Shown here: positions 7,301 through 54,742 of the stretch, piece by piece
Layout of the letters: every line of letters starts with the position of its first letter
How positions within the stretch are numbered: position 1 is the stretch's first letter
Source of the DNA: a virus
Taxonomy: Duplodnaviria > Caudoviricetes
DNA: 64,000 bases
Strand: one strand, 5' to 3'
Virus record (IMG/VR): IMGVR_UViG_3300005739_000025
Program-made: the position numbers and the translations under genes
The notes under the pieces: generated by a model
The model's input: the letters and a program-made list of their open reading frames with translations, nothing else
Database searches by the model: none
What the model was told of the DNA's origin: nothing

Positions 7301-8343
7301 TGAGTAATGCTAAATGGGCAGTCTTTACAGATCTGCACCTAGGGGTACATCAAAATAGCTCAGTATGGCATAAAATTGCTTTGGATTGGGTTGATTGGTT
7401 TGTAGCAGATTTAAAAGAAAAGAATATAAACCAAATTATATTCACTGGAGACTTTTTTCATTCTCGTTCTGAGATATCCGTTAATACTATACACGTAGCG
7501 GCAGAATTTTTAAGTAAGCTTAAAGGTTTTGATATAAAGATGGTTGTTGGTAACCACGACAGCTACTATAAACAAAAAGCAGAAGTACATTCCCTTTCTA
7601 TTCTATCTGGTTATTCCAATATAGAAATATTTGATAAAGTTTCTGTTATAGATATTAACGGTAAAAAGGCGACCTTCTGTCCTTGGGGGTTCGACTATGG
7701 TGATGTTAAGGATTGTGATATAATCTTTGGACACTTTGAGATTGAATCATTTAAGATGAATGCTCATAAGTTGTGTGAAGAAGGTTATAAACCTAAAGAT
7801 CTCTTAAAGAAAGCACCTTTAATATTCTCTGGCCACTTTCACTTAAACGAAGAGCGTGAATATGAAGAAGGTAAAATCATTTACGTTGGTAGTCCTTTCC
7901 AACTAGATTTCGGTGAAAGAGATTGTAATAAAGGTTATTATATTATTGACTTTAAAGATCTTTCCTACAATTATTTTACTAATAACAAAACACCAATACA
8001 TAAAAAACTATTAGTTTCTGAAATTATAAACGGGGAAGAGCTTAAAGAAGAATATAAAGAACTGATTAAAAATAACTTTGTAAAGATTGTTATAGATACA
8101 AATATTGAACAAAAAATCTTAGACAATATAATACATCTATGCAACAGTTATTCACCCTTGTCTCTCACTGTTGATCCCTTAGTAAACTATAATCTAACAA
8201 ATGATCAAGAAGGTACAGATCTTTCCGGTGTAGACATATCCAAAGCGATAGTAGAGTTTGTTAATCTTCTCGATATTAAAGAGAAAGAAGAAGTAACAAA
8301 ACATACATTATACCTTTACAACCAAGCATTAAAGCATGACTAA
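7300..8343 (+). CDS. gp47: Mre11/SbcD-like recombination nuclease gp47
   Basis: TDLHLG, GDFFH, GNHD, GHFE and SGHFH metallophosphoesterase motifs. Confidence 0.92.
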   Translation: MSNAKWAVFTDLHLGVHQNSSVWHKIALDWVDWFVADLKEKNINQIIFTGDFFHSRSEISVNTIHVAAEFLSKLKGFDIKMVVGNHDSYYKQKAEVHSLSILSGYSNIEIFDKVSVIDINGKKATFCPWGFDYGDVKDCDIIFGHFEIESFKMNAHKLCEEGYKPKDLLKKAPLIFSGHFHLNEEREYEEGKIIYVGSPFQLDFGERDCNKGYYIIDFKDLSYNYFTNNKTPIHKKLLVSEIINGEELKEEYKELIKNNFVKIVIDTNIEQKILDNIIHLCNSYSPLSLTVDPLVNYNLTNDQEGTDLSGVDISKAIVEFVNLLDIKEKEEVTKHTLYLYNQALKHD

Positions 8344-10141
8344 GAGAGTAAATTTTGAAAAGCTAGTTATAGAAAACTTTTTATCTATTGGAAATAAACC
8401 AGTAGAGATTAATTTTCGTTCTGGTTTACATGTTATAACCGGTATAAACAAAGACCAAGCTGATAGAAGAAATGGTATTGGTAAGAGTACGATATTGGAT
8501 GGTTTGAGTTTTGTATTGTTTGGCTCTACATTAAGAGAGCTTAAAAAAGAATTTGTAATAAACAATATTACAAAAAAGACTTCAAAGCTTACGTTAACGT
8601 TTTCTATTACTGAAAACAATGTAACAAATCACTACGAAGTTTTTAGATCAATAGAACCTAGTAAGTGTTATTTATACGAGAACGGTGTTGATATTACTCG
8701 TGACTCTATGGTTAATACTACAGAGTATATACAGAATATATTAAAACTTACTCCAGAAGTATTTCAAAACTGCATAGCTATGACGTTGAATAATATGATT
8801 CCGTTTATGGCTAAGAAAAAGATAGAAAAGAGAAAATTTATTGAAAGCATTTTTAATTTAGAAATCTTTAGCGAAATGAATAGCAATTTAAAAGTAGAAT
8901 TGCTCGAAGCTAAAAGAGAATTAGATATTAAAAATGGTAAGTATGAGGAGATTAAAAACTTCTTTAATGCACTCACCACACAAAACGAAAATAAAGAAAA
9001 AGAAAAACAAAGCAGAAAAGAAACTTTAAATAAACGACTTACAGATAATCAGAAAGAAATAGAACAAATTGATGCTAAAATCGATAAACACCAAAAATTA
9101 GATCTCACATCTGTTAAAGAAAAAATACAATTAGCTAACGAAAAGATTAATGAATTAACCACAAAGATTAATACCGTCGGTAAAGAAATTACATCGATAG
9201 AAACAAAAAGAGATTTTAGTAGATCATCCTTATTGAAGATTGGCACAGATAAAGAAACCTGTCCAGTATGTCTTAAACCGGTAACTGAAGCAGATAAGGA
9301 CCATATTAAAAATAAGAAAAAAACTTTTAATGATGAAATTAAGGCTTTTGAAAAAGATATTAAAGTGTTAGAAGAAAAACTTAATATTTACGAACAGTCT
9401 AAACATAAATTAAACGAAGCAGTTAATAAACTTAATGAAATCGTCAACAAGCAAAATGTTCAAAATGAACAGAAAAAACATTTCTTACAAAGAAGAAAAC
9501 AACTAGAAGATTACATTAAAGATATAGAAAAAGATTTAGAGGACTTAGATAAAACAAATACCGATTTTGGTAAGGCACTAAATGATCAAAAGGTAAAGTT
9601 AGATGATATAACAGCGGCATTAGAAAAAGACCGTCATAATATTAACATACTTGACTACGTAAAGTTCGTTTTAAGTGAAGATGGAGTTCGTAGTTATATT
9701 GTTAAGAAGATCTTGACTCTGTTTAATAACAAGCTATCACACTATCTTCGTAAGTTAAACTCTAATGCCTTTATAGCTTTTGATGAGTTCTTCGAAGAGA
9801 CTATAGTTAATAATAAAAACGTTCAAATGAGTTACTTCAATTATAGCGGTGCTGAAAAGAAAGTAATAGACCTTGCCATCATGTTTACATTTATAGAAAT
9901 GTTAAGATTACAAAGTGGTGTTATATATAATGTTCAGTTTTATGATGAGCTATTAGATACAAGTCTTGATGAAGCTGGTGTAGAGCTGGTTGTGTCATTG
10001 CTAAACGAACTCACCCAAACATTTGATTACGGTATATATATTATATCTCATAGGAAAGAATGCTCAAAACTCTCTACAGGAGACGTTATTTTCTTAGAAA
10101 AGAAGCAGGGTATAACTAAAAGAATACCCTTTGAAGGATAG
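8336..10141 (+). CDS. gp46: Rad50/SbcC-like ATPase gp46
   Basis: Walker A NGIGKS, coiled coil with CPVC zinc hook, signature YSGAEK, Walker B DELLD, ISH. Confidence 0.93.
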   Translation: MTKRVNFEKLVIENFLSIGNKPVEINFRSGLHVITGINKDQADRRNGIGKSTILDGLSFVLFGSTLRELKKEFVINNITKKTSKLTLTFSITENNVTNHYEVFRSIEPSKCYLYENGVDITRDSMVNTTEYIQNILKLTPEVFQNCIAMTLNNMIPFMAKKKIEKRKFIESIFNLEIFSEMNSNLKVELLEAKRELDIKNGKYEEIKNFFNALTTQNENKEKEKQSRKETLNKRLTDNQKEIEQIDAKIDKHQKLDLTSVKEKIQLANEKINELTTKINTVGKEITSIETKRDFSRSSLLKIGTDKETCPVCLKPVTEADKDHIKNKKKTFNDEIKAFEKDIKVLEEKLNIYEQSKHKLNEAVNKLNEIVNKQNVQNEQKKHFLQRRKQLEDYIKDIEKDLEDLDKTNTDFGKALNDQKVKLDDITAALEKDRHNINILDYVKFVLSEDGVRSYIVKKILTLFNNKLSHYLRKLNSNAFIAFDEFFEETIVNNKNVQMSYFNYSGAEKKVIDLAIMFTFIEMLRLQSGVIYNVQFYDELLDTSLDEAGVELVVSLLNELTQTFDYGIYIISHRKECSKLSTGDVIFLEKKQGITKRIPFEG

Positions 10142-16294: not shown

Positions 16295-16313
16295 TTCGAA
16301 ACCAAATACGCGG

Positions 16314-16348
16314 CCGCGTAGTCGGGTAACTGGCTACGCGGTTTTTTT
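16314..16348 (+). terminator. Rho-independent terminator after uvsX
   Basis: Stem CCGCGTAGTC / GGCTACGCGG (one G-U pair), 8-nt loop, then T7. Confidence 0.85.
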
Positions 16349-17050: not shown

Positions 17051-17773
17051 ATGAGCAAAAAGAAAATAGTAGTAACGGTTTCTGGGGGTATGGATAGCGC
17101 GGTACTACTTTATATGGCAGTACAAAAAGTCGGTAAAAATAATGTCTACCCTTTGTTTTTTAATTACAACCAACGTCATATACGAGAGTTGGGATGTGCC
17201 CGGGGGTTAGTAATGAATGTTTTAGATAAAGAACTTAAAGAGATTGACGTTTCTTTTATTCGAGAATTAGCTCCTACTAGCTCACTCACAAATGATGATA
17301 TTGAGACACCAAAAGTGGATGAAGTAATGGGTGAAGCACAACCAAAATCATACGTACCATTTAGAAACTTAATGTTTTTAAGTATCTGTTGCTCATATGC
17401 GGAGAGTGTAGATGCCAGTGAGGTGTGGTATGGTGCAACACAAATAGATAGCTTAGCTGGTTACTGGGATGCGGAAGAAAACTTTGTTAAAAAAGTTAAC
17501 CAAGTGGTAAAGTTAAATAGAGAAAAGAAAATTAAAGTTGTCGCGCCATTGCTCAGTGCAAATAAATCAGATATTGTAATGAAAGGTGTTGAGTTGGGAG
17601 TGCCTTTTGATATGACCTATACCTGTTATTCAGGGGATATGCCCGCAGATGCAACATCTGCGTCTTCCTCTTTAAGAATAAAGGGATTTTTAATGGCAGG
17701 TTATATCGATCCTATGCCCTACAAACAAGATTTAACTGAGATCTGGCAAAAGCATAATTGCAAAATAATATAA
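17051..17773 (+). CDS. queC: QueC-family ATP pyrophosphatase (7-cyano-7-deazaguanine synthase-like) with degenerate Zn site
   Basis: SGGMDS PP-loop, FNYNQRH, SSLT, YVPFRN, APL..NKSDIV, TCY. The zinc ligands read C-x7-D-x2-S-x2-S. Confidence 0.85.
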   Translation: MSKKKIVVTVSGGMDSAVLLYMAVQKVGKNNVYPLFFNYNQRHIRELGCARGLVMNVLDKELKEIDVSFIRELAPTSSLTNDDIETPKVDEVMGEAQPKSYVPFRNLMFLSICCSYAESVDASEVWYGATQIDSLAGYWDAEENFVKKVNQVVKLNREKKIKVVAPLLSANKSDIVMKGVELGVPFDMTYTCYSGDMPADATSASSSLRIKGFLMAGYIDPMPYKQDLTEIWQKHNCKII

Positions 17774-17777
17774 TACT

Positions 17778-18368
17778 ATGGAACGTTCTGAATTACAAAC
17801 AAGACTTAAAAATGAAACTAAAGGTATACATGATCTGGCAGAAAATATGACAGTAATGAAATCTTTTATTGATGGATCATTTAAGCTAAGACATCTTCTA
17901 CAATATTTGATTAATGTAAAGCCTCTTTATGATGTTGTTGAACAAAGATTATTACAACCTTATATTTTAAAAAATTCTGATTTAAAAAGAACCGATAAAA
18001 TACAACAGGATATTGACTCTATAGTAAAACATTTTAGATCTATTGGTGATGATTTGGGACATATGCTTACACCTTTAGAGGTTACAGATCTGTGGGTAGG
18101 TTGGTGTTGGAGTAAACCAAAAGATTTATTGAAGGCCGATCTATATACGCGTTGGCTAGCAGATATGTACGGAGGTCGCATTATGGCTAAAAATATGGGG
18201 ATATTTGCTGAGTCTTTAAAATTTAATGATACAGCTAAAGCTATAGAAGATGTTAGGTCGATAATAGATGAGAAAAATAAAGATGTAGACAATAACGATA
18301 TTATTGAAGAGACCATGAAAGTTTTTGAATATCATACTGATTTGTTTACTATTTTAGAAAATGAATAG
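17778..18368 (+). CDS. hemO: heme oxygenase
   Basis: LKNETKGIHDLAE (proximal His helix), RTDKIQQD, and YTRWLADMYGG (distal helix, compare YTRYLGDLSGG). Confidence 0.85.
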   Translation: MERSELQTRLKNETKGIHDLAENMTVMKSFIDGSFKLRHLLQYLINVKPLYDVVEQRLLQPYILKNSDLKRTDKIQQDIDSIVKHFRSIGDDLGHMLTPLEVTDLWVGWCWSKPKDLLKADLYTRWLADMYGGRIMAKNMGIFAESLKFNDTAKAIEDVRSIIDEKNKDVDNNDIIEETMKVFEYHTDLFTILENE

Positions 18369-19023
18369 TCACTTAATAATACAAAATTATTTTAACGAAC
18401 TATCATCACTCTTTAAAGAGTATTATGGAGATCCAGACGCTAAAACACTACCATTTCAAAAAGATATACACTCTTGGTTAAATTATTTTTATAAATCTCC
18501 TATTTTTAGACATATTCATTTAGAATATTATAAAACAGATAAAATTTGTGTACTCCACTCTAATATATTTCCAAACCCATTAGTAGATTTACCAATTATG
18601 GGGTTTGATCTTATAGCTTTGGGTGATAAAATTTCGGGATTATTCTTCGACTTTACCCCTACGGTAACTGAATCTCATGCTCTAAGACATAGTTTAGAGA
18701 ATTTAAATGAAAGATATAAATCTAAAAAACGCCTATTACCTGAATGGGCAACCTTTTTTAGTGATGATTTTTATTGCGTTACTCCTGAACCTAATGAAAT
18801 GGATAGGATCTTTAAAGATATAAAATTTTATATTAAACATTATCTTGAATTTGGTAGAGGTAAATTAGAAGAATATACATTTAATATAGCTATACAAAAC
18901 GGTTATTGTAAGGGTCAACAAAAAAATGATAAAACATTTAAAGCGCTTTCTGCGGAAATAGGAAGTAAAGATGCTAAAAAATTTCTTACTAAATATCTTT
19001 TTCCGAAAATTGCAATTAAGTAA
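18361..19023 (+). CDS. pcyA: ferredoxin-dependent bilin reductase (PcyA/PcyX family)
   Basis: FRHIHLE, VLHSNIFP..DLPIMGFD, FFDFTP, LPEWATFFS, YCKGQQKNDKT..L...G and YLFP; follows the heme oxygenase with an 8-nt overlap. Confidence 0.85.
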   Translation: MNSHLIIQNYFNELSSLFKEYYGDPDAKTLPFQKDIHSWLNYFYKSPIFRHIHLEYYKTDKICVLHSNIFPNPLVDLPIMGFDLIALGDKISGLFFDFTPTVTESHALRHSLENLNERYKSKKRLLPEWATFFSDDFYCVTPEPNEMDRIFKDIKFYIKHYLEFGRGKLEEYTFNIAIQNGYCKGQQKNDKTFKALSAEIGSKDAKKFLTKYLFPKIAIK

Positions 19024-19043: not shown

Positions 19044-19700
19044 ATGTGTGGTATATATGGAGCAAATGATAGAGAAAAATTTCTTACTCTACAAAAATTA
19101 AATACAGAACGAGGAGATTTTTGCGAAAGTAGCGTATTAGTCACAAAAGACGGGTTTGAAATACATAAGGTTCCAAAAAAAGCTAAAAAAAATTATAAGT
19201 TTCCAAAAAGAAAAAAATTTGATTTGTATCTAGGACACTCCCAGGCCCCAACTTCCACTAAAAGATTATTTAACCCAGAAACATCTCATCCATTTACTGT
19301 TGAAAATTGGGTAGTAGCTCATAATGGAGTATTAACAAATTACAAAGAGCTTGTTAATCAATTTCAAAGACCATACAACAACCCGGTAGATAGCAGTATT
19401 ATACCCTATCTTATGTACAAAATGAGTGAACTTTCATCTAACGAAATAGAAATTATAGTTAATTCGTTAGAGTTTTTAAAAGGTACGTTTGGTGTTTGGA
19501 TACATAACGCATTTACAGGTAACACATTTTTAGCTAAATGTGGGGTAACATTATTTGCAGATATATATGATAATTGTTTTAGCTCAGTAAGTTACAAGTT
19601 TTTTGACCCTTTAGAGGAAGGAACACTATACCAACTAACAAGTGAAGGAATCACTAGTGTCGCAACATTTGATTGTGATAGTCCGTTCTTTACTGTTTAG
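19044..19700 (+). CDS. class II (Ntn) glutamine amidotransferase-like protein
   Basis: N-terminal MCGIYG, GHS, HPF, HNGVLTN, VDS, GTF. Confidence 0.85.
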   Translation: MCGIYGANDREKFLTLQKLNTERGDFCESSVLVTKDGFEIHKVPKKAKKNYKFPKRKKFDLYLGHSQAPTSTKRLFNPETSHPFTVENWVVAHNGVLTNYKELVNQFQRPYNNPVDSSIIPYLMYKMSELSSNEIEIIVNSLEFLKGTFGVWIHNAFTGNTFLAKCGVTLFADIYDNCFSSVSYKFFDPLEEGTLYQLTSEGITSVATFDCDSPFFTV

Positions 19701-20548
19701 TCCCAAGGCATATCACCTTTAGATCTACCAATATAAACACCACCGTAAGGGTCTTTATCAAAATCTTCCACGTCTTCAGGGTCATAACCAGAAGTTACCT
19801 CACCAGTACCTTCACCTTCATTTTCCTCTTTCTCTTTTGTCTCTTCTGGATCTACAGCTTCGTAGTTACCACCGTCGGTTTTTTGTAAATAACCTGTTCG
19901 AATAAGAGAAGAAATGTTTATTTTTGCTTCTGACTCTTCCATATCAGGGTTATCCCCTATCATCATTCTAGTTAATTCTTCTCTAGAATATCCACCTTCA
20001 CCTAAAATTCTTTCCCAGAATCTTTTCATTACTGGATCATCTATACCCGCACCAGCGTTTGTTTGTTTTGATGTTTCTGACGATGGCTCTTCTTTGTCTA
20101 GCTTATCTGCATTTTTTAAAGTGTAATTTGTTAACTTTTCTACACCTTTTTGTGATGGTTTTTTATCCATAACAACCCCATCTCTTTCGTCTTTAAGTAC
20201 CCCTGCTGCTTTTAAAGCATTGTATAATACTCTAGCTGAGTATTTTGAATTAGTGTTATTGATAGATGGTTTAATTTCTCTAATAACTGGAGCCAACTCC
20301 ATTTCATAAAAGTCCTTATATAGTTTTGGGGACTTTCCACCCTTAGCTTTAAATGTGGATAAGAATTTTGAAAATACTTGCGATGTTTCTTCAGGTGTTA
20401 AGTCGTATTTACCTTTAGCTAATTCTGGAAACTCAGCTTTTACCTCTTCCCCTGATCCTGAATAGTCACCCATCTCTACAGGTGCTAGTTCGTTTAATAC
20501 GTTTTTCTTTTTATAAGCTTCAAAAATTAGATATGAGTCTTTGTCCAT
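19697..20548 (-). CDS. late protein with capsid-targeting-like leader and possible winged-helix domains
   Basis: TATAAATA 5 nt upstream; leader ...LIFEAYKKKNVLNE; helix-helix-helix-beta hairpin pattern (NISSLIRTGYLQKTDGGNYEAV). Confidence 0.5.
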   Translation of the reverse strand: MDKDSYLIFEAYKKKNVLNELAPVEMGDYSGSGEEVKAEFPELAKGKYDLTPEETSQVFSKFLSTFKAKGGKSPKLYKDFYEMELAPVIREIKPSINNTNSKYSARVLYNALKAAGVLKDERDGVVMDKKPSQKGVEKLTNYTLKNADKLDKEEPSSETSKQTNAGAGIDDPVMKRFWERILGEGGYSREELTRMMIGDNPDMEESEAKINISSLIRTGYLQKTDGGNYEAVDPEETKEKEENEGEGTGEVTSGYDPEDVEDFDKDPYGGVYIGRSKGDMPWD

Positions 20549-31525: not shown

Positions 31526-32251
31526 CGTGTTGTTAATATTCATATCAAATACCTGGAACCTAGACTGAGCTTCAGCATCTCCTGGATATGATGAAGTTCT
31601 AATAACAGGTGTAGTTTGATTACTAGATAATATCCCGTAATAAGTATCATCATGTACTTGGGCACTACCCTTTTCAAATGTTATATCTGGCTCAAAAGAG
31701 TAATCAAAACGCTTAGCTTTTAACATCCACACATAGTGTCCCATAAGCGGATTAATTTGAGAATTGTCTTCATCACATCTTTCGGTGATTTCAAACATCT
31801 TACCGTCCCTTTCACCTGGTCTGTCGGACCCATATTCTAAAAGTTTAAAAACATCTCCAGATTTTGGTTCCCATGTTGGAGGAAACACAGCATAGAAACT
31901 ACTTATATGTACATATGCTGTTACCGTGTCATCGCTTTGAAAACCAAACTTACTTAATACTAAGGCATTTTCAGCTAATTTAACTCCCATTATTAAAGGC
32001 TGAGGTGTTAAAAACCCCGCTAAAGGCTGTTCACCGTAAATGTTATCAGCAGTTTCTACATTATATTTGTTTCTATAATAAAGTACTTTTTGCCCATATA
32101 ATTCTATTTGCTCTTTCCACCAATTACTATACATTAGTCTTTCGCCATAATTGTTAGCCTTATCTGTATAACGTAAAGCGGTAGGGGTATATCCGTTATT
32201 TGGATATGTTTGAATACAATTCATTCCCTCATATTTGTCTAGTGAAATCAT
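31502..32251 (-). CDS. gp14: neck/head-closure protein gp14-like
   Basis: EQIELYGQKVLYY, NIYGE, LSKFG..SDD, EPKSGDV match the gp14 pattern. Confidence 0.75.
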   Translation of the reverse strand: MISLDKYEGMNCIQTYPNNGYTPTALRYTDKANNYGERLMYSNWWKEQIELYGQKVLYYRNKYNVETADNIYGEQPLAGFLTPQPLIMGVKLAENALVLSKFGFQSDDTVTAYVHISSFYAVFPPTWEPKSGDVFKLLEYGSDRPGERDGKMFEITERCDEDNSQINPLMGHYVWMLKAKRFDYSFEPDITFEKGSAQVHDDTYYGILSSNQTTPVIRTSSYPGDAEAQSRFQVFDMNINNTLTYGGYY

Positions 32252-40702: not shown

Positions 40703-42124
40703 GTGGACAATATCGTAAGTTTACCAGAAAAATATTTTGATGTTAATTCATTTAACAATCAAGAGGATTTAGAGGGTGATAATTTAGAGTATAGAGTTGA
40801 AGATCCCCTAACTCTATCTGAAGATTATGCAATGCCAGGAGAAACAAGAGGGATAATTTCTAAACCCGCGACACCCACAAGGTCGTATGCCAATAACGAT
40901 ACTGTAACTAAAGATGAAAATGAAGAATCTTTAGATAACAACACTGTTAATAATACTAATGTTTATCAAGCTCAAGACAACACAGAATTATTAAATGAAA
41001 TAAAACAGTTAGATGAAAAAATAAAAAATCTTCAAAACGAGATACAAATAACGCCAACACAAGAAATAAAACAAAATATTGTTAATACTAATTTAGAAGA
41101 TTCAGATTCTACCGTAAATGTGGTAAATAAGGATTTTTTTAATAACAATCTACAAAATACAGATAATGTTTTTAATGAATTGTCTTCCGAATCAATCAAC
41201 AATTTACAAAACAATAATGCAGACAATACAAATATAGTTCAAAATACTAAATCAAATATTAACAATAATGATCAAGTTCTTCAAAGAGAAATAAACAATT
41301 TACTAGAAAAAAGAGAACAACTATTAAACCAATTTTATTTTAAAGAAGCTCAAAATCAAAACGTCTTTGACACTACCAACGTTAATAATTCTAATACAGA
41401 ATCTAGAGTACTAGTTGATAACTTTACACCTAATTTTGCTTTTGTTTCAGAAGAGCAACAAGAAGCTATAGATAGAAGTGTAGAAGCTGAAAATGCGTTT
41501 GGCAGTGACCCAAAATTAGTTAGTGATAGTTTTGGTAATCCTGCAGTTATAAGTGAAGATCAAGTAGATCTTAATACCGCTATTGATCAACACGGTGGTG
41601 TGGATAATGCTATACAGGATTCAGTAAATCAGCAACAATACTTAAACAACGGTAATTTACAATCAGGAGAAACTTTAGAAGAAAACAATACTTTTAATAA
41701 TGATTCTAAATCTACTATAAAAGAAGGTGATAGTGCGCTAAGCGAAGAAAATAATTATGAAAATATTGATAATAGTTTTTATGGCATAGGCAAAGACGAT
41801 AGTTCTGAGGCTATAAAAAGCTCAGGTAAGCAGACTGTTGATGCAATAAACAAATTAGCAAATCAGTTTAATAATTTAGCAAAAGCTATAACAAGCGGTT
41901 TTAATTCTGTTAATGGTAAAATAAAGGATATTGGTAATCAATCTCAAAACAACGTTACTAATAATTACAAAAATGAATCATCTGGAAGTTCACCTCAAAT
42001 GGGATCAAAAAATAAAAGTAATATATCACCGGAAATAAGAGGAGACACGCCATTAAAGCAACATTTTCCTAGTAATATGGATTTAAATAATTTACATGGA
42101 AATAACTTATTTACAAGAGTATGA
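40703..42124 (+). CDS. Asn-rich low-complexity protein at the tape-measure (gp29) position
   Basis: TTAAATA 5 nt before GTG; lies between gp26-like and gp48-like genes. Confidence 0.4.
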   Translation: MDNIVSLPEKYFDVNSFNNQEDLEGDNLEYRVEDPLTLSEDYAMPGETRGIISKPATPTRSYANNDTVTKDENEESLDNNTVNNTNVYQAQDNTELLNEIKQLDEKIKNLQNEIQITPTQEIKQNIVNTNLEDSDSTVNVVNKDFFNNNLQNTDNVFNELSSESINNLQNNNADNTNIVQNTKSNINNNDQVLQREINNLLEKREQLLNQFYFKEAQNQNVFDTTNVNNSNTESRVLVDNFTPNFAFVSEEQQEAIDRSVEAENAFGSDPKLVSDSFGNPAVISEDQVDLNTAIDQHGGVDNAIQDSVNQQQYLNNGNLQSGETLEENNTFNNDSKSTIKEGDSALSEENNYENIDNSFYGIGKDDSSEAIKSSGKQTVDAINKLANQFNNLAKAITSGFNSVNGKIKDIGNQSQNNVTNNYKNESSGSSPQMGSKNKSNISPEIRGDTPLKQHFPSNMDLNNLHGNNLFTRV

Positions 42125-43356
42125 GTAATTTATATAGTTTTACAAATAATAAATGTGAAAATGCAGGTGCACCTATGTTAACACCCGCAGGTGGTTTTAC
42201 TGCATCATTTAATGGTTCAAATTATATTGGTAGAGATAGTTTAAATTTTTCTTCTGGTTTTATAGATGTAGTGAACAACTTTCAATGGACTCACTCACCT
42301 CCTGGTACACAATCAAGACAAGAAGTACCAGGTATAACACTAAGAGAAAAGAGACTTAGAACTAATTCACTAATAGCTGGTGCTGCTTATTTTCTTTCTT
42401 CAGCTTCTTCTTCATTAGGTACTCTAGATGCAAGAATAGGATCCGTGTTTGGTCAATCAATCGGTGGTGTATTAAGTAACATAGCTTCAAACCCTGGACT
42501 ACAAAGTACTTTTTCTACAATTGGTAATATTTTTAATCAAAATCTTTTAAATTCAGTTGCAACTCTTACAACTGGAAATTCTGATATTAATAGTATATTG
42601 GGCGCTACTATTGAAGGTCTAAACAGCAAATATCTAAGACCGTATGAAGGTCTCTATATAACAGAAGATACCAAATTTACTTATTATCTACCTTATTTTG
42701 CAGATCAATTAAATAACGTTTTAAACAGATTTACAGAAAATGATCAACAACTGTCAAATTCCATTATGGGTCAAGGTGTAAATGAAATTTATAACGCAGC
42801 TTCTGCTTTAGCTAGATTTGCACATTTTAAGGAACCAGGCATTTATATTGAAAGACCAAAATTTTATAATTTTACCAATACAGGTGAAAGTATAGAATTA
42901 GAATTTCCGTTAGTTAATACCGGTTGGGCTACATATGATGATGTGAGAAGAAATTGGCAATTATGTTTTATGCTTACATATCAAAATAGACCAAATAGAA
43001 GATCAAGAGAGCTTATTGATCCAGCTTGTATATATGAAGTCAACATACCAGGGGTTAAATATATGCCTTATGCTTTTATAAGTCAATTAAAAATAGACTT
43101 TATGGGTTCAAGAAGAATGATGCCTTTAGAAGTTCCAGGGGGTACCATTAATACAATCGTACCAGACGCATATAAAATTTATATGCTTATAGAAGGGCTA
43201 TTACCAGAATCTCAAAACTTCTTAGCTTCTATGCTTTCTGATAAACAGGATATAGTCAATGTAGTAAGCAATGATCGTTACAACCCATTTGGTGAAATTT
43301 TTAATAGCTATGAAAATTCTTTTAGAAATGAAAGTGCATCTTTAAGAACCCAGTAA
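42121..43356 (+). CDS. baseplate tail-tube cap gp48-like
   Basis: IERPKFY, EFPLVNT, NRPNR, PACIYEVNIPG pattern. Confidence 0.55.
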   Translation: MSNLYSFTNNKCENAGAPMLTPAGGFTASFNGSNYIGRDSLNFSSGFIDVVNNFQWTHSPPGTQSRQEVPGITLREKRLRTNSLIAGAAYFLSSASSSLGTLDARIGSVFGQSIGGVLSNIASNPGLQSTFSTIGNIFNQNLLNSVATLTTGNSDINSILGATIEGLNSKYLRPYEGLYITEDTKFTYYLPYFADQLNNVLNRFTENDQQLSNSIMGQGVNEIYNAASALARFAHFKEPGIYIERPKFYNFTNTGESIELEFPLVNTGWATYDDVRRNWQLCFMLTYQNRPNRRSRELIDPACIYEVNIPGVKYMPYAFISQLKIDFMGSRRMMPLEVPGGTINTIVPDAYKIYMLIEGLLPESQNFLASMLSDKQDIVNVVSNDRYNPFGEIFNSYENSFRNESASLRTQ

Positions 43357-43360
43357 TATT

Positions 43361-43759
43361 ATGATTATCACAAATCAACAAAGCATTTCAGCTGTAGGAC
43401 CTTTTCAAAAAGATGTTCCTTATTTACCTACTTTAGATGAATTTTCGTTTGAAAATTTTTTAAGATTATATTTAACTAAAGATAATCAATTTTTTTATAA
43501 TCTTCTAACCACACAAGTGGTTATTGATGGAGAATTAGACGCTAGCACGTTTTATACAATTACAGTAACAAAATCTATACCGTGGACAACTATTAGTTAT
43601 AACGAATATAGAAATATGAACTTGTGGTGGTTAATAATGGCAACTAATAAGATTAGAAACCCTATTGAATATCCGGTACCGGGAACTCAACTTAAAATAC
43701 TATACCCCCAATTTGTTAGATATGTTGTTGATCAAATAATAGAAAAACAAAAAACATGA
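43361..43759 (+). CDS. gp53: baseplate wedge LysM protein gp53-like
   Basis: WTTISYNEY....LWWLIMATNKIRNP...PGTQLKI. Confidence 0.75.
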   Translation: MIITNQQSISAVGPFQKDVPYLPTLDEFSFENFLRLYLTKDNQFFYNLLTTQVVIDGELDASTFYTITVTKSIPWTTISYNEYRNMNLWWLIMATNKIRNPIEYPVPGTQLKILYPQFVRYVVDQIIEKQKT

Positions 43760-45408
43760 TAAAAGGTATTTTCAGCAATTTAACTTCTGGTGGCGCAAAA
43801 AAGGATAACGTTGAGCAAATTGGCGATAACGTATATATTTTTAACTTAAAACTTTTTAACGGAACTTCTGAAGTAGGTTTAAAATTTAGCGCAGTAGAGG
43901 ATTTACAAATTGTAGATGACTTAAGGTTCTTTTATGTTTATGGAACTTTAACAATTAACTACAACAATGATGTTTTAGAAGCGTTTGAAAGTTTAGGTAG
44001 TAGCATGGGAACAGGTGGTGGTAATGCGCAGTCGTATCAATTTAGAGGTGATGGTAGAGATATTTTAAAAATAGATATAATGCCTCAAATAAAAGAGCAA
44101 AAATGTTTGGAGGTTTATGCTTCAGAAAGTGACAGAAAAAAATATAATATTAAACACGAATGTAGTATATACAAATATGAAGATATAACTTCGAGTAAGG
44201 GAAATAAACAGAGAAAATTTTATTTTTGGGACAGAGATTTTCAAATATTAAGCGATGTAACAATAGACTACTCTACAGGAGACAAAACAAAAAGTGGTAC
44301 AGGTTCGTCTCCTAAGGGTGGTTCTGCAAAAACAGGCGCTGGTGCTGCAGCTGCAGCATCTAACCCAGCAACAAGATCTACTACAAGCGGTACCCAGGCT
44401 GGTAATAAAAAAGCTTCAAACTCGAATACAGAAAATAGTGTATTAACTAGTGAAGCTATGGAGGATATATTAAAGAAAGCTTTAGTAGAAATATCTGGAC
44501 AAAAATTTAAAAAGGGTTTGTGGGATACCGGGGAATCAAAAATAATGTATTATAGCACAAGCAGCAACAAAGCTGTACAAGATCTGTCTTATGTGTTATC
44601 ACTACATATTAGTGATAAAAGTAATAACAACTTACCGTGTTTGCTAAAAAAAGAAAGATATACAGACAAATATGATTTAAAACCTATAAACAAGTATTAT
44701 TCTGGGGGTACCGGTCTGAGTTTGGGTACTTTGTTAAACGCTAATGATCAAGAGGATTTTTACATAGGTAAAATAGATCCATCTTCTTCTGGACTACAAC
44801 GAGGTAGTATGAAGGGTTCCAGAGGAGGTAAGATGAACGTTTCTGATTACAACTTGATAGACGATTATACTTTCACTAAAATAAATGCTAAAGACCTACA
44901 AAAGTATCTAGCAACATCTATAGTTCATAGTAATGATCCAAGAGGTTTTTTTACATCAGATTTTAAAGAAAATAACTTTCAAAGCGCTACTAAGTTATAC
45001 GAAAAAACTTATTTAAAATCAGGAAATTACTCTAGTGGTTCTAGTACAAATACCCCTGTTAATAAATTAAGAAAAACTCACAAGACTATAACACATGATT
45101 ATATTCCAGATAACGTAAGTAAAGAACAAAGAAAAAGTTATGGTGTTAATAAAGGTATGTTAAATTTATTTTTTAAAAATACATCTATATCTTTTAGAGC
45201 TAGAGGTAATACAATGAGACAAACAGGTAAATTTTTCACAATAAATAGAATGGATAGTAACATAAGTACTTCATATGATAACAATGTTTTAGGAAAGTAT
45301 ATGACAACGTACGTGATACATCAATTTGGAAAAGGCGGATATACTAATACTATTCACGGGGTCAAACCGTATGTAGATAAAAAACAAAACTTTACGGAGG
45401 AAGTCTAA
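43756..45408 (+). CDS. baseplate hub protein gp27-like
   Basis: Follows gp53; C-terminal RGN...GK...GKY.TT.V.H.F hub pattern. Confidence 0.6.
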   Translation: MIKGIFSNLTSGGAKKDNVEQIGDNVYIFNLKLFNGTSEVGLKFSAVEDLQIVDDLRFFYVYGTLTINYNNDVLEAFESLGSSMGTGGGNAQSYQFRGDGRDILKIDIMPQIKEQKCLEVYASESDRKKYNIKHECSIYKYEDITSSKGNKQRKFYFWDRDFQILSDVTIDYSTGDKTKSGTGSSPKGGSAKTGAGAAAAASNPATRSTTSGTQAGNKKASNSNTENSVLTSEAMEDILKKALVEISGQKFKKGLWDTGESKIMYYSTSSNKAVQDLSYVLSLHISDKSNNNLPCLLKKERYTDKYDLKPINKYYSGGTGLSLGTLLNANDQEDFYIGKIDPSSSGLQRGSMKGSRGGKMNVSDYNLIDDYTFTKINAKDLQKYLATSIVHSNDPRGFFTSDFKENNFQSATKLYEKTYLKSGNYSSGSSTNTPVNKLRKTHKTITHDYIPDNVSKEQRKSYGVNKGMLNLFFKNTSISFRARGNTMRQTGKFFTINRMDSNISTSYDNNVLGKYMTTYVIHQFGKGGYTNTIHGVKPYVDKKQNFTEEV

Positions 45409-51172: not shown

Positions 51173-54100
51173 ATGATAAGCTTAACAGGTGTAAAGATAA
51201 AAACTACCACTTATCCGGATTTTGCGGCTATACAAAGTTTTTTTAGTTATACTTTGTCAAATACTCCATTTTATTTTAAATTACAGTGGGTTTCTAATGA
51301 TGAAAATTATAGAAACTTATTTAGTAGAAATCAAATTTTATGGGATTTTGGTGATGGTGAGTTTTACGTAGGTGAGACAGCAGAACATTATTACAAATGG
51401 CCTGGGTCGTATTTGGTTACAGCCACAATTTATGATGTAGAGGGTAATACCTACACCCTACAAGTAGATAATTTTTTACAAGTTTATAATGCTGTTCCTG
51501 ATTTGGTATCTATAGGAGATCTTGGAGGGTCAGTAGCATATCCTATTGAAGCGGGTAAAAAAACCCCACCTCTAAAAATTTTTAGAAGCAATAGCTGGCA
51601 ATATGATAGCTTTTTAAATGGAAAAAATTATACTGTTAATTTATACGCCTCAGGTTGTAGAAGCAATTTTATAAGTGTAAGTTCATATTATTCTAATTCT
51701 TGGTCACATCTTAAAACATATTTTGGCTTTATTGAAACAACGGTTAATGTTAATAATATTTTAGAAGATAAAATAATTGATTCCACAACAACAACAAGCG
51801 CTAGCGTTTATGCTGAGAGAATTAACACAGGGTTTATTAACAATAGCTGGGATGTAAAATTAAAATTTTACAGTTATCCAGAAAAAAATACAGTTTTTTG
51901 TGGAACGACCGGAGCTCTTTCAAACGATAAAATATTAACATTTGTAGATCAAAGAGCTAATCTTGACAACATTTATAGTTTTGATATTTTATACGCATCT
52001 TTTGACTCTACCATTTTTAAAGATGCAAATTATTTAAAATATAATTATAATTCAGATGACCCCTATGGTTTTATAAACTATCCTTACACAGCTCAATTTA
52101 TCAAGTCTTTATTCAATCCTGCTACAGGTATAAAAATAACATCCAACGGCATTTCTGTAGAAGGTCCTGTAGAAGAATCAAATGATAGATTTCAAAGAAA
52201 CTATTCATTTGATATATACCCTATAAAATATACCGATTCTAAAATAAATTTTGTATGCACATTTAAAGATAAAGACAATTTTACAACAAAATGCTATCCA
52301 CCTTTAAAATTAAATCAAAATAAAGCATTAGAATTAAACGACATAAGAGTTACATTAATGGAATATAATGGCATCTCTTCCACGCCAATTACCGGTGTAA
52401 ATATATATAAAAACATTGATATACCCGATTATAATAATAGTGGTAGCTATTTTGCTGGGATATTAGAAAGCAAAGAAGAAAGGTCAGTTGTAGCATTATC
52501 AGCTATATCTTACATAGTAGATGAGGCTTATACACTTCCAACATTAAACTATGGCTATATAATGCAGCCAGGTTTAAATCAATTTAGGAGAATAAAAAAT
52601 GAATTTAATTACGGTTATTATAACAATTCAGAAAAATTTAAAACTGGTGTAAAAAGTAAATTAGACACCTATAAAGCAAATGTTAGCGGCGGTGTAAACA
52701 TCACTTACGCGCCTTTGTTTATAAAAGACCCCTTATCGGGAGGATTTGTATGGATAACAAACAGTGCCAATGATTCATTACTATTATTTGACACGGAGGG
52801 TCAACAAAAAGGTATAGTGTTTTTTAGAAGATTGAGGGTTTTTAGACCTAGTCCGTCCGGCATAGGCGGATCAGCCCCTATTATAAATGCATTGGGGGAT
52901 AATAGAAGTGCTTCACCCTGTAATATCGCTATTGATAGCAACGGTGATGCTTGGGTTACCTTAAGAGATACAATTACTTCATTTAAGCTGGATAAAAATA
53001 CTTTGATTGCTACTAAAGTGATAATACCCTCAGTCAAAAGCTTTCCATTTTACAGTAGTGATACAGATTATCTTTCTTTATGTGGTTTTGCGGGTGAAGA
53101 TTCTGTTTTACCTTCTAGTATAGATGTAGATAGAAATGACAATGTTTATATTTCTTACACAAATACACTTTGCAGCTTTATAGCAAAATATGACAAAGAT
53201 GGGAAAGAATTGTTAAAAATTCCATTTTTATTCCCGTACACAATAAAACAACTATTAATTGACACAGAAAATAATATTTGGGCTACCTCTTTTAATAACG
53301 CGGGTTTATTAGACGAATTAAACGTTCCCCAAACAACGAATATTGTTAATAGAGTAGATTTACTATATTATATAGATCAAAAAAATCCGCTAAACAACTT
53401 TGTTAAAAGATTTTCAATGTTAGGCGACCTAACAATGGATAGTGGTGGTAACGTTTGGGTCAACAGTCAAAACAATACTATTAACAGAATAACAAAAGAT
53501 GGCAATGTAATAAGTTTTTTAATGGGTAACCCTGAAAGTGTAACCGATTATATTCAAGATTTTGGAGGGCTGGCCGGAGATTTGGATGGAAATCTTTGGG
53601 TAATAAACAATTCAGAAGGATTAATACAATTTTTTGATACAAAAAATCCTCGACAGCTTGATCCATCAGATTACAGTAGCACTATAATACCTGGTATTTT
53701 GCCAGCAATTGTATTACCGGATACATTTAAAACCGTATCCGAGGAAGGTACCTTTGCATATTACCAGACTATTGGTGATTTTACAGGTATTAGATGGGCG
53801 TTAAAAAATAGAGTGAGAACAACGACCGCCCCGAGAATTGTTACAGGTACAAGTAATTACTTTACAATTAGAAAACCTGAATCTATAGTAGTAAAGAAAA
53901 ACGAAAATTATGATTTAGCTACCACAATAAGAAGTTATGCTTTACAGGAATCGCTATATAATAGTACAGACTTTTTTAATAATTTTTTAACCCCAATACT
54001 TAACGGTAATACAGGTAATGTTGATGAATTGGGTAAAGTCATATACGAAAAAATTACCAATTTTGTTGATAATAATTCTGATATAGACAAATGCAATCTA

Positions 54101-54703
54101 AGAAGTTTACAATCTATTTACGAAATGTTTGGTGAAGAATTTACAGATTTTTATTTTTCCGCGCCACCGTTTATGAGAAGAGTAATTGACTTACTATCAA
54201 TTAAAAAATGTATATTATATGGCAATTTTAATACCTTTAACAGACAGTTTATCTTATCTTCTTTTGAATATTCTATCGATTCAAATTTAGGTGCAGAGAT
54301 AGATATTGAAACCGGAAAATTTACACCCGGGTTGCCAATAATCACTTACGAGTATTTTAGTAAAAAATATAATTTAGTTCATAATACTTTAGTAAAGGCA
54401 CCTGGATTAAGTGCATTTAAACCCTATCCCCTATCAGCTATAAATTATAATTGGGGGTGGGGTTTAATTACAGGAAATATAGAACAAGATTACAGGGAAA
54501 TTAAAAATTATTATAAATTTTTTGCTTTTAAACCTACAAACAATAAAGATCTTTATGACGGCTTAATAGACTTTGATGATAGTCTTACTAGACTTGAAAA
54601 AGAAATAATCGATTTTAATGAATGGAAATCGTATGCAGGTACGATGGAGTATATAATTGGTGGTAATTTGTATAAAAACCTTAAACAGTTTAAAATACAG
54701 TAA
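51173..54703 (+). CDS. large baseplate protein (gp7-like position) with a PKD domain and NHL-type beta-propeller
   Basis: WDFGDG...HYY..PG.Y.VT (PKD); repeated IAIDSNGDAWV / DVDRNDNVYI / DSGGNVWV / DLDGNLWV blades. Confidence 0.7.
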   Translation: MISLTGVKIKTTTYPDFAAIQSFFSYTLSNTPFYFKLQWVSNDENYRNLFSRNQILWDFGDGEFYVGETAEHYYKWPGSYLVTATIYDVEGNTYTLQVDNFLQVYNAVPDLVSIGDLGGSVAYPIEAGKKTPPLKIFRSNSWQYDSFLNGKNYTVNLYASGCRSNFISVSSYYSNSWSHLKTYFGFIETTVNVNNILEDKIIDSTTTTSASVYAERINTGFINNSWDVKLKFYSYPEKNTVFCGTTGALSNDKILTFVDQRANLDNIYSFDILYASFDSTIFKDANYLKYNYNSDDPYGFINYPYTAQFIKSLFNPATGIKITSNGISVEGPVEESNDRFQRNYSFDIYPIKYTDSKINFVCTFKDKDNFTTKCYPPLKLNQNKALELNDIRVTLMEYNGISSTPITGVNIYKNIDIPDYNNSGSYFAGILESKEERSVVALSAISYIVDEAYTLPTLNYGYIMQPGLNQFRRIKNEFNYGYYNNSEKFKTGVKSKLDTYKANVSGGVNITYAPLFIKDPLSGGFVWITNSANDSLLLFDTEGQQKGIVFFRRLRVFRPSPSGIGGSAPIINALGDNRSASPCNIAIDSNGDAWVTLRDTITSFKLDKNTLIATKVIIPSVKSFPFYSSDTDYLSLCGFAGEDSVLPSSIDVDRNDNVYISYTNTLCSFIAKYDKDGKELLKIPFLFPYTIKQLLIDTENNIWATSFNNAGLLDELNVPQTTNIVNRVDLLYYIDQKNPLNNFVKRFSMLGDLTMDSGGNVWVNSQNNTINRITKDGNVISFLMGNPESVTDYIQDFGGLAGDLDGNLWVINNSEGLIQFFDTKNPRQLDPSDYSSTIIPGILPAIVLPDTFKTVSEEGTFAYYQTIGDFTGIRWALKNRVRTTTAPRIVTGTSNYFTIRKPESIVVKKNENYDLATTIRSYALQESLYNSTDFFNNFLTPILNGNTGNVDELGKVIYEKITNFVDNNSDIDKCNLRSLQSIYEMFGEEFTDFYFSAPPFMRRVIDLLSIKKCILYGNFNTFNRQFILSSFEYSIDSNLGAEIDIETGKFTPGLPIITYEYFSKKYNLVHNTLVKAPGLSAFKPYPLSAINYNWGWGLITGNIEQDYREIKNYYKFFAFKPTNNKDLYDGLIDFDDSLTRLEKEIIDFNEWKSYAGTMEYIIGGNLYKNLKQFKIQ

Positions 54704-54742
54704 ATAGGTATAAAAACGGGTGTATTATTTTAAATAATAATG

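Follow-up and report, generated by a model that had tools for sequence, protein, structure and literature searches.

The 64,000-nucleotide stretch of DNA analyzed here (the window) stems from the IMG/VR virus record IMGVR_UViG_3300005739_000025 (Duplodnaviria; Caudoviricetes). It carries two adjacent genes which code for a heme oxygenase (HO) and a PcyA-type ferredoxin-dependent bilin reductase (FDBR). The sequence-only reading of the window had placed such a pair at 17778-19023 and had described it as a complete route from heme via biliverdin to a phycobilin. The pair corresponds to two exact open reading frames (ORFs), and the family, residue, and fold evidence presented below supports, in silico, a route from heme via biliverdin to a reduced bilin.

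17778-18368, + strand: heme oxygenase of the HO-1 family, 196 aa (Pfam PF01126, Heme_oxygenase)
18361-19023, + strand: PcyA-type FDBR, 220 aa (Pfam PF05996, Fe_bilin_red)
18361-18368, + strand: overlap of 8 nt between the HO stop and the FDBR start, ATGAATAG (read directly from the sequence)

The 8-nt overlap is consistent with coupled translation. The HO gene is located directly 5' of the FDBR gene in every relative which carries both genes, either overlapping it or being separated from it by a gap of 13-32 nt.

The reductase is assigned to PF05996 with 89.4 bits (cut-off 31; E 3.7e-25) and is annotated as "ferredoxin oxidoreductase" by PHROGs. A phmmer comparison to all PDB sequences returned PcyA from Nostoc (2G18, 7.5e-20) and Synechocystis (2D1E, 2.2e-18), followed by PcyX (5OWG, 8.7e-16); PebS (2.4e-3) and PebB are only distant matches. 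In the phmmer alignment to 2D1E, residues H53, E55, H66, and D83 correspond to His74, Glu76, His88, and Asp105, which is exactly the assignment that had been made by eye, and D190 corresponds to Asp220. The latter residue is part of a Lys-Asn-Asp-Lys-Thr motif identical to that in 2D1E. The C-terminal Asn-Asp-Lys-Thr is the form found in cyanobacterial PcyA, the form in PcyX being Asn-Pro-His-Thr.

These residues bear on the reaction product. Glu76, His88, and Asp105 constitute the catalytic triad of PcyA, with Glu76 being PcyA-specific and required for 18-vinyl reduction (PMC10151467, PMC13446030). In PcyX, which makes phycoerythrobilin (PEB), the Glu76 and Asp220 positions are occupied by Asp and Pro, respectively (PMC13446030 Table 2, PMC10151467); the sequence-only reading was thus correct about the product and the difference at Glu76. 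The window FDBR has Glu55 and Asp190 at these two positions. Pre-PcyA proteins have neither Glu76 nor His88 (PMC13446030).

A search of 5.8 billion proteins revealed close relatives of the FDBR in at least 168 clusters, with 53-90% sequence identity and a length of 217-227 aa, all of them metagenomic; for the exact window FDBR, a look-up among public contigs gave no entry. H53, E55, H66, and D83 are invariant in the family alignment of 26 sequences (A1), and Glu occupies position 55 in all 120 relatives listed (53-100% identity). The Asp220 position is more variable, with Asp in 82 relatives, Glu in 23, Asn in 5, Val in 3, and Ser in 1. An AlphaFold2 model built on the family alignment has a pLDDT (per-residue confidence score) of 94.9. 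When compared to the PDB using Foldseek, its top 18 matches are all PcyA (probability 1.0, E ~1e-13), with PcyX at rank 29. Three features of PcyA are thus present in the protein: FDBR fold and family, the Glu/His/Asp triad, and placement in the PcyA/AX crown group as opposed to pre-PcyA or the PebA/PebS/HY2 lineages (see below).

The HO is highly divergent, with only 24% sequence identity to the HO of pelagimyophage Mosig, and has 35 close relatives. It is assigned to PF01126 with 41 bits (cut-off 23; E 2.4e-10), and its best phmmer match in the PDB is HO-2 from Synechocystis (1WOV, E 2.5e-6). The AlphaFold2 model (pLDDT 93.2) superimposes on 1WOV, 1WE1, 1IW1, and 5UC8 (HO-1, HO-2, and HmuO) with Foldseek TM scores of 0.72-0.78. 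Structural hallmarks of the HO-1 family are present: the helical HO fold, the proximal His (H18), and the Asp and Gly-Gly of the distal helix (Asp140, Gly143, and Gly144 in human HO-1). H18, Glu22, Tyr123, Arg125, the distal Asp (D129), and G132-G133 are invariant in 27 aligned HO sequences.

The distal region reads Ala-Asp-Leu-Tyr-Thr-Arg-Trp-Leu-Ala-Asp-Met-Tyr-Gly-Gly in the window HO versus Ala-His-Cys-Tyr-Thr-Arg-Tyr-Leu-Gly-Asp-Leu-Ser-Gly-Gly in Synechocystis HO-2. The Asp-Leu-Tyr that had been pointed out in place of the usual His-x-Tyr is therefore real: D121 replaces the usual His (His132 in human HO-1), and the position is Asp or Glu in 18 of 18 family members (alignment A3). At the Gly139 position, the window HO and 17 of the 18 other sequences of this alignment have Ala; Gly is found in P0303 and in Mosig. 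The HO from Bradyrhizobium sp. ORS278 has Cys at the His132 position (PMC11480375 supplement), so that His132 does not define the family, and the vHemO of freshwater phage CB_2 is active even though its distal Asp is replaced by Tyr (PMC11480375). The Asp at the His132 position is thus no argument against HO activity.

For the phylogeny of the reductase, which the sequence-only reading had called for, an exhaustive HMMER search was made over 1.84 billion representatives. The window family is a single 50% cluster in this set, and the clusters next to it show at most 41% sequence identity. A quick tree contained 142 rows; the careful maximum-likelihood (ML) tree, computed with IQ-TREE under LG+C20, contained 101 rows and used PebS from P-SSM2 as outgroup. 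Named anchors were the pcyA genes from P-SSM4, P-RSM4, and S-SSM6b and the gene from Mosig. PcyX EBK42635, PcyA from Bradyrhizobium sp. ORS278, and CB_2 vPcyA were anchored approximately, by matching short motifs from their sequences (PMC11480375 supplement) to the representatives. The reference set is devoid of pre-PcyA sequences.

In the ML tree, a long branch (100/100) separates the cyanobacterial and cyanophage PcyA from the AX superclade (alphaproteobacterial PcyA and phage PcyX), which contains the window FDBR and is itself supported at 100/100. Within AX, two sister clades can be distinguished. Clade B comprises PcyX (100/100), the Bradyrhizobium-type PcyA (100/99), a CB_2-like pair, and several short Glu-His-Asp groups; the representatives of the PcyX clade and Mosig show the pattern Asp-His-Asp-Pro, with Ser, Asn, Gln, or Lys as alternatives at its first (Glu76) position and with position 220 being mostly Pro. 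Clade A (100/95) comprises the window family, a second phage lineage, a four-member P0122-type group, and eight further short Glu-His-Asp proteins, with the window family and the second lineage being grouped at 100/99. In this tree, the window family falls outside the PcyX clade, and our best estimate is that its FDBR is an AX-type enzyme distinct from both PcyX and the PcyA of cyanobacterial type. Among 185,579 species-representative prokaryote genomes, no relative was detected with the family alignment A1 or with P0152 (two short family-specific peptide patterns). Clade A looks virus-only, having been found just on large T4-like lake phages within the searched data.

Because the full PcyA proton-donor set including the Glu is kept and the enzyme is placed outside the PcyX clade by the ML tree, phycocyanobilin (PCB) is the best product prediction and is most likely made instead of PEB, as the sequence-only reading had suspected. 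It is also the most economical prediction, because PCB is what all assayed enzymes with Glu-His-Asp make, irrespective of their side of the tree: CB_2 vPcyA (PMC11480375) and the alphaproteobacterial PcyA (PMC10151467) on the AX side, and cyanobacterial PcyA on the other. The opposing view is that the FDBR is active but makes another bilin (PEB, phytochromobilin, or a mixture), the triad alone being insufficient to predict the product of an uncharacterized AX branch. Clade A indeed contains no characterized member, and a sister relation to PcyX is not rejected by the approximately unbiased (AU) test (p 0.086 for the forced union). Work on pre-PcyA and HY2 has revealed that the product can switch by subtle changes (PMC13446030), and in part of the sister lineage the key Glu is naturally exchanged for Gln. 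Set against this are the Glu55 in 120 of 120 listed family members, the PCB formed by both assayed AX-side triad enzymes, and the C-terminal motif, which is that of cyanobacterial PcyA and not that of PcyX. We consider a product other than PCB unlikely, although it has to be kept in mind.

The Glu-to-Gln variants occur in the second phage lineage of clade A, where the FDBR is encoded at ~7990-8640 of each locus. The Glu76 position is Gln in L011, L014, L016, and L017, and Glu in L010 and L012, so that Glu (GAA) and Gln (CAA/CAG) alternate among enzymes which are 80-87% identical. Since Glu76 has been stated to be required for 18-vinyl reduction (PMC10151467, PMC13446030), the Gln forms are predicted to have lost this reaction; no paper reporting the product of a Glu76Gln mutant was found in the literature. 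As Glu55 is strictly conserved throughout the window family, 18-vinyl reduction, and hence product identity, would seem to be under selection there, whereas the alternation in the sister lineage would mean that for some phages it is just the disposal of heme or biliverdin which counts. A more far-reaching proposal is that clade A is a separate viral invention, in which the strictly conserved PCB-type chemistry provides for a bilin-binding partner in a non-phototroph, e.g., a regulator or light sensor taken over by the phage, and the Glu-to-Gln exchange in the sister lineage retunes the product. We regard this as a speculative option with a rather low probability.

The IMG/VR record to which the window belongs has a length of 148.8 kb and a CheckV completeness of ~70%. 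The same FDBR protein is also encoded on a contig of 244 kb, and the full phage genome is probably ~244 kb long. Genes of a T4-like myophage are found in the window, including those for the gp43 DNA polymerase, the large terminase, the tail sheath, and the baseplate wedge. The gp43 polymerase shows at most 32% sequence identity to that of any cultured phage, cyanophages and the Pelagibacter phage Mosig included, and megablast with 12 kb around the locus returned no match to cultured phages. With no more than ~31-32% identity between its replication genes and those of cyanophages and pelagiphages in culture, the phage is best described as a member of a deep-branching T4-like lineage and not as a standard cyanomyovirus. 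A standard cyanophage was the outcome which, according to the sequence-only reading, would have overturned it.

The phage is of freshwater origin. Three freshwater metagenome runs, each from a different study, contain short contigs with 100% identity to the window; one of these runs may be the source sample, and a fourth run contains relatives which are ~80-85% identical across the whole block. All six listed runs which hold the stretch are freshwater metagenomes, and no RNA run is among them. Two further members of the FDBR family (P0013 and P0039) and its nearest outgroup (P0280) are encoded on 55- to 215-kb scaffolds of the German lakes dataset GROS21-1.

The sequence-only reading had reported that psbA, hli, cpeT, and petF are absent from the 64 kb. 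Hidden Markov model (HMM) searches extend this to the 148.8-kb record, in which no psbA/psbD, [2Fe-2S] ferredoxin (Fer2), phycobilisome protein, GAF, CpeT, or hli was found. Except for hli, which was searched in this record only, the same holds for five related records of 69-177 kb (up to 176.8 kb; 32-82% complete), with CpeT having been searched in part of them. The gene set typical of Kyanoviridae (psbA/psbD, hli, and others) was thus not encountered, with no match above threshold to Photo_RC, Chloroa_b-bind, CpeT, Phycobilisome, or Fer2 in the 148.8-kb record. A Phycobilisome match at 32067-32243 of the record, within an ORF of 1496 aa, is sub-threshold (15.6 bits) and was dismissed as a chance match. 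Fer4 ferredoxin, flavodoxin, ALA (5-aminolevulinate) synthase, and ferrochelatase also were not detected by HMM searches in the 148.8-kb record or in the related records. Because the searched phage records encode no electron carrier, the reductase would need those of the host, and the cassette represents the minimal form consisting of just two genes.

These data bear on the host, which is probably not a cyanobacterium. If the phage were instead a freshwater cyanophage, the pair could top up PCB for the phycobilisomes of the host, as has been proposed for cyanophage ho1/pcyA. The predicted product is indeed a phycobilisome chromophore, ~30% of the genome is outside the searched sequence, and the best cultured matches of the polymerase include freshwater and marine cyanophages (S-CRM01, BUCT-ZZ01), yet at only ~31-32% identity. 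This is countered by the lack of psbA/psbD, phycobilisome, and CpeT genes in the searched records and of hli in the 148.8-kb record, and by the tree, in which the FDBR belongs to AX and the three cyanophage PcyA anchors belong to another clade. The G+C content of the window is ~26-39% per 2-kb bin and mostly near 31%, which is well below that of most freshwater cyanobacteria. Taken together, we consider a cyanophage improbable.

The bilin genes are embedded in a compact block on the + strand with the order uvsX, hairpin, thyX, queC-like gene, HO, FDBR, and amidotransferase-like gene. Further 3' follow a convergent ORF without known function, a glycosyltransferase gene, and a gene for a gp41-type helicase. 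The features next to the pair are:

16312-16343, + strand: terminator-like hairpin between uvsX and thyX, 14-bp stem with 8 G-C pairs, followed by a T run (from a consensus scan only)
17051-17773, + strand: queC-like gene, upstream flank of the cassette slot (Pfam PF06508, 169.6 bits)
19044-19700, + strand: small glutamine-amidotransferase-like gene, downstream flank (GATase_6 24.9 bits and GATase_7 19.8 bits, both below cut-off)

The hairpin may represent the 5' limit of a compact thyX-queC-HO-FDBR-GATase block. The amidotransferase-like protein starts with Met-Cys-Gly-Ile, and its position is kept in the relatives; a single-protein scan with this protein gave no matches.

Close relatives of the phage (gp43 76-77% identical) retain the order uvsX-(thyX)-queC-HO-FDBR-GATase-(ORF)-glycosyltransferase-gp41, and the cassette is flanked by the same genes on contigs which are 55-227 kb long. 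A scan with a QueC alignment returned 80 loci, more than 70 of which (gp43 49-58% identical) share the backbone and differ in the content between QueC and GATase. In these relatives, the interval has 1.1-3.7 kb and is occupied by unrelated ORFs, mostly on the minus strand and without a Pfam match. In the second phage lineage (gp43 ~43% identical), the HO-FDBR pair is found directly after gp43. This identifies the interval between QueC and GATase as a slot with variable content, in which the bilin genes are mobile cargo. A functional link of the bilin genes to the QueC-like and amidotransferase-like genes was considered and rejected, because more than 70 relatives have unrelated genes at this position and the second lineage uses the gp43 site.

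In four relatives with the cassette in the same slot (L025-L028), the HO is 39-51% identical to the window HO. Three of these (L026-L028) retain the FDBR, which is 55-59% identical, compared to 87-88% for UvsX and 68-70% for QueC. Judged from these values, the HO-FDBR pair diverges faster than the flanking genes. The rapid divergence of the HO, its modest Pfam score (41 bits), and a slot content which differs among related phages could be taken to indicate that the slot is hypervariable and the pair a passenger which is decaying or has no function. However, both ORFs are intact in all relatives examined, the catalytic residues are invariant in the 26-27 aligned sequences (45-90% identity) and in 120 cluster representatives, both fold models are confident, and the FDBR family has more than 168 clusters. 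A passenger without function is thus very hard to reconcile with the data, and we assign it only a marginal probability.

We thus favor, with a probability of roughly 0.65, that the pair is an auxiliary metabolic cassette, and that the freshwater phage carrying it, which is uncultured, T4-like, and deep-branching, probably infects a non-cyanobacterial host, with PCB being the most likely product. As the cassette is situated among genes for DNA replication and nucleotide metabolism, HO and FDBR are probably expressed together with the replication genes during infection. The HO would open host heme to biliverdin IX-alpha with release of iron and CO. The FDBR would take electrons from host ferredoxin and subject biliverdin to a four-electron reduction, in which Glu55 would drive the reduction of the 18-vinyl group and thereby direct the product to PCB.

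Within this interpretation, the role of the cassette can be envisaged in two ways. The one which we prefer, though tentatively and at somewhat less than even odds, is heme breakdown for the release of iron or the remodeling of host heme, the FDBR acting as a biliverdin sink. The second, which appears possible but less probable, is that the pair supplies a bilin chromophore or effector to a putative bilin-binding protein.

Several points weigh against the auxiliary cassette as outlined. The AU tests formally reject neither the union with PcyX (p 0.086) nor that with the cyanobacterial PcyA group (p 0.058), and clade A is without any characterized enzyme. Subtle substitutions which are not predictable from sequence can shift the regiospecificity of FDBRs, as exemplified by an Asn-to-Asp exchange which switches algal HY2 from PCB to PEB (PMC13446030). 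The Glu-to-Gln flips in the sister lineage suggest that selection does not always act on the exact product. Among relatives with 51-88% identity in UvsX, the HO shows only 39-51% identity, which could reflect relaxed constraint or cassette exchange. Also, with the record being ~70% complete, photosynthesis genes could be located in the remaining part of the genome.

Phages are known to carry ho1/pcyA and ho1/pebS (cyanophages) and hemO/pcyX (marine phages, e.g., the pelagimyophage Mosig). In addition, ho1 and "pcyX-like" genes have been described for large freshwater phages since 2020. The sequence-only reading had listed cyanophage and hemO-pcyX versions; this list was incomplete, because a freshwater PcyA case had already been published. 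For CB_2 from Crystal Bog (Chen et al., 2020), it has been demonstrated biochemically that vHemO and vPcyA make biliverdin and then PCB, and a phytochrome was loaded with the product (Nat Commun 2024, PMC11480375). It is thus already known that a freshwater non-cyanophage can encode an HO and PcyA pair which makes PCB.

CB_2 resembles the window phage in being a freshwater non-cyanophage with an HO and an AX-type FDBR, the latter having Glu at the Glu76 position and not the Asp of PcyX. However, CB_2 is a jumbo phage of 527 kb, while the window phage is T4-like with ~244 kb. The two CB_2 genes are one gene apart and are accompanied by a viral ALA synthase, whereas those of the window overlap and no ALA synthase was found in the searched records. 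The motifs of CB_2 vPcyA place it in a small clade beside the Bradyrhizobium-type PcyA in clade B (a motif-based placement), in contrast to the window family in clade A, and its C-terminal motif is Asn-Glu-His-Thr compared to Asn-Asp-Lys-Thr. The CB_2 HO has His where the window HO has Asp121, and Tyr where the window HO has the distal Asp.

The hemO-pcyX cassettes (EBK42635, 5OWG; Mosig) share with the window an HO gene immediately 5' of, and overlapping with, the gene for an AX-type FDBR, and occur in T4-like phages of non-phototrophs. The Mosig FDBR is the best match of the window FDBR among cultured phages (31% identity). PcyX differs by Asp/Pro at the Glu76/Asp220 positions and makes PEB, while the window enzyme has Glu/Asp. 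The Mosig HO, 24% identical to that of the window, has kept the usual His, and Mosig has a ferrochelatase gene nearby, which was not found in the window phage records.

The PcyA proteins from cyanobacteria and cyanophages (2D1E, 2G18; P-SSM4, P-RSM4, S-SSM6b) have the same triad, Asp220, and Asn-Asp-Lys-Thr as the window FDBR and are its best PDB matches by sequence and by fold. However, they are only 25-31% identical to it, its N-terminus is 20-30 residues shorter, and a long branch (100/100) lies between them. In P-SSM4, P-RSM4, and S-SSM6b, which are standard Kyanoviridae, pcyA is without an adjacent HO gene at all three loci, whereas the pair is adjacent in the window.

PcyA from Bradyrhizobium sp. 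ORS278 is, like the window FDBR, an AX-type Glu-His-Asp enzyme from outside the cyanobacteria, and it makes PCB for a photoreceptor (PMC11480375, PMC10151467). It differs in being cellular, in its size of ~250 aa, in belonging to another AX subclade, and in being encoded on a hemO-pcyA-alaS island beside a phytochrome; searches of the window phage records revealed neither a GAF nor a phytochrome gene.

Compared to these systems, the new aspects are the different phage type (T4-like, ~244 kb), a separate and apparently virus-only AX subclade, a cassette devoid of ALA synthase, and the natural Glu/Gln polymorphism in the neighboring lineage. What a phage gains from a phycobilin when it infects a non-phototroph is a standing puzzle posed by such cassettes. 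A large lineage of T4-like lake phages (at least 168 clusters) with a fixed Glu, together with a sister lineage in which Glu and Gln flip, constitutes a natural experiment which asks whether bilin identity matters or only the removal of heme or biliverdin. The single characterized freshwater case (CB_2) is thereby extended to another phage type and another enzyme subclade; this is not by itself a new kind of biology.

A few further observations were made in the window and its relatives. The QueC-like gene and the Met-Cys-Gly-Ile amidotransferase-like gene belong to the backbone of more than 70 related T4-like contigs (L029-L104), where they are always separated by an interval. A TGT/DpdA-type transglycosylase was not found in the 148.8-kb record. 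The ORF converging on the amidotransferase gene (19697-20548, - strand) codes for a protein of 283 aa which is rich in acidic residues and has no Pfam or PHROG match; it is 58-61% identical in close relatives, while in farther relatives the neighboring position is taken by minus-strand ORFs (335-580 aa) which are unrelated to it. Five large ORFs from the structural region (473, 411, 550, 1176, and 1465 aa; 40703-45405 and 51173-59134 of the window) have no PHROG match at E 1e-5.

At two loci, L007 (5471-6124) and L009 (8001-8648), the FDBR gene has no recognizable HO gene immediately upstream and an HNH-type ORF is located nearby; in these phages, the HO may be absent or encoded elsewhere. Finally, six apparent natural fusions were encountered among the representative search matches: P0123, P0134, P0135, and P0161 (380-399 aa), P0155 (504 aa), and P0151 (410 aa). 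Four of these are FDBR-HO fusions (from N- to C-terminus), one is an HO-FDBR fusion, and one has an FDBR joined to a methyltransferase domain. If the HO/FDBR fusions are real and not read-throughs from gene calling, they would independently support a joint function of HO and FDBR.

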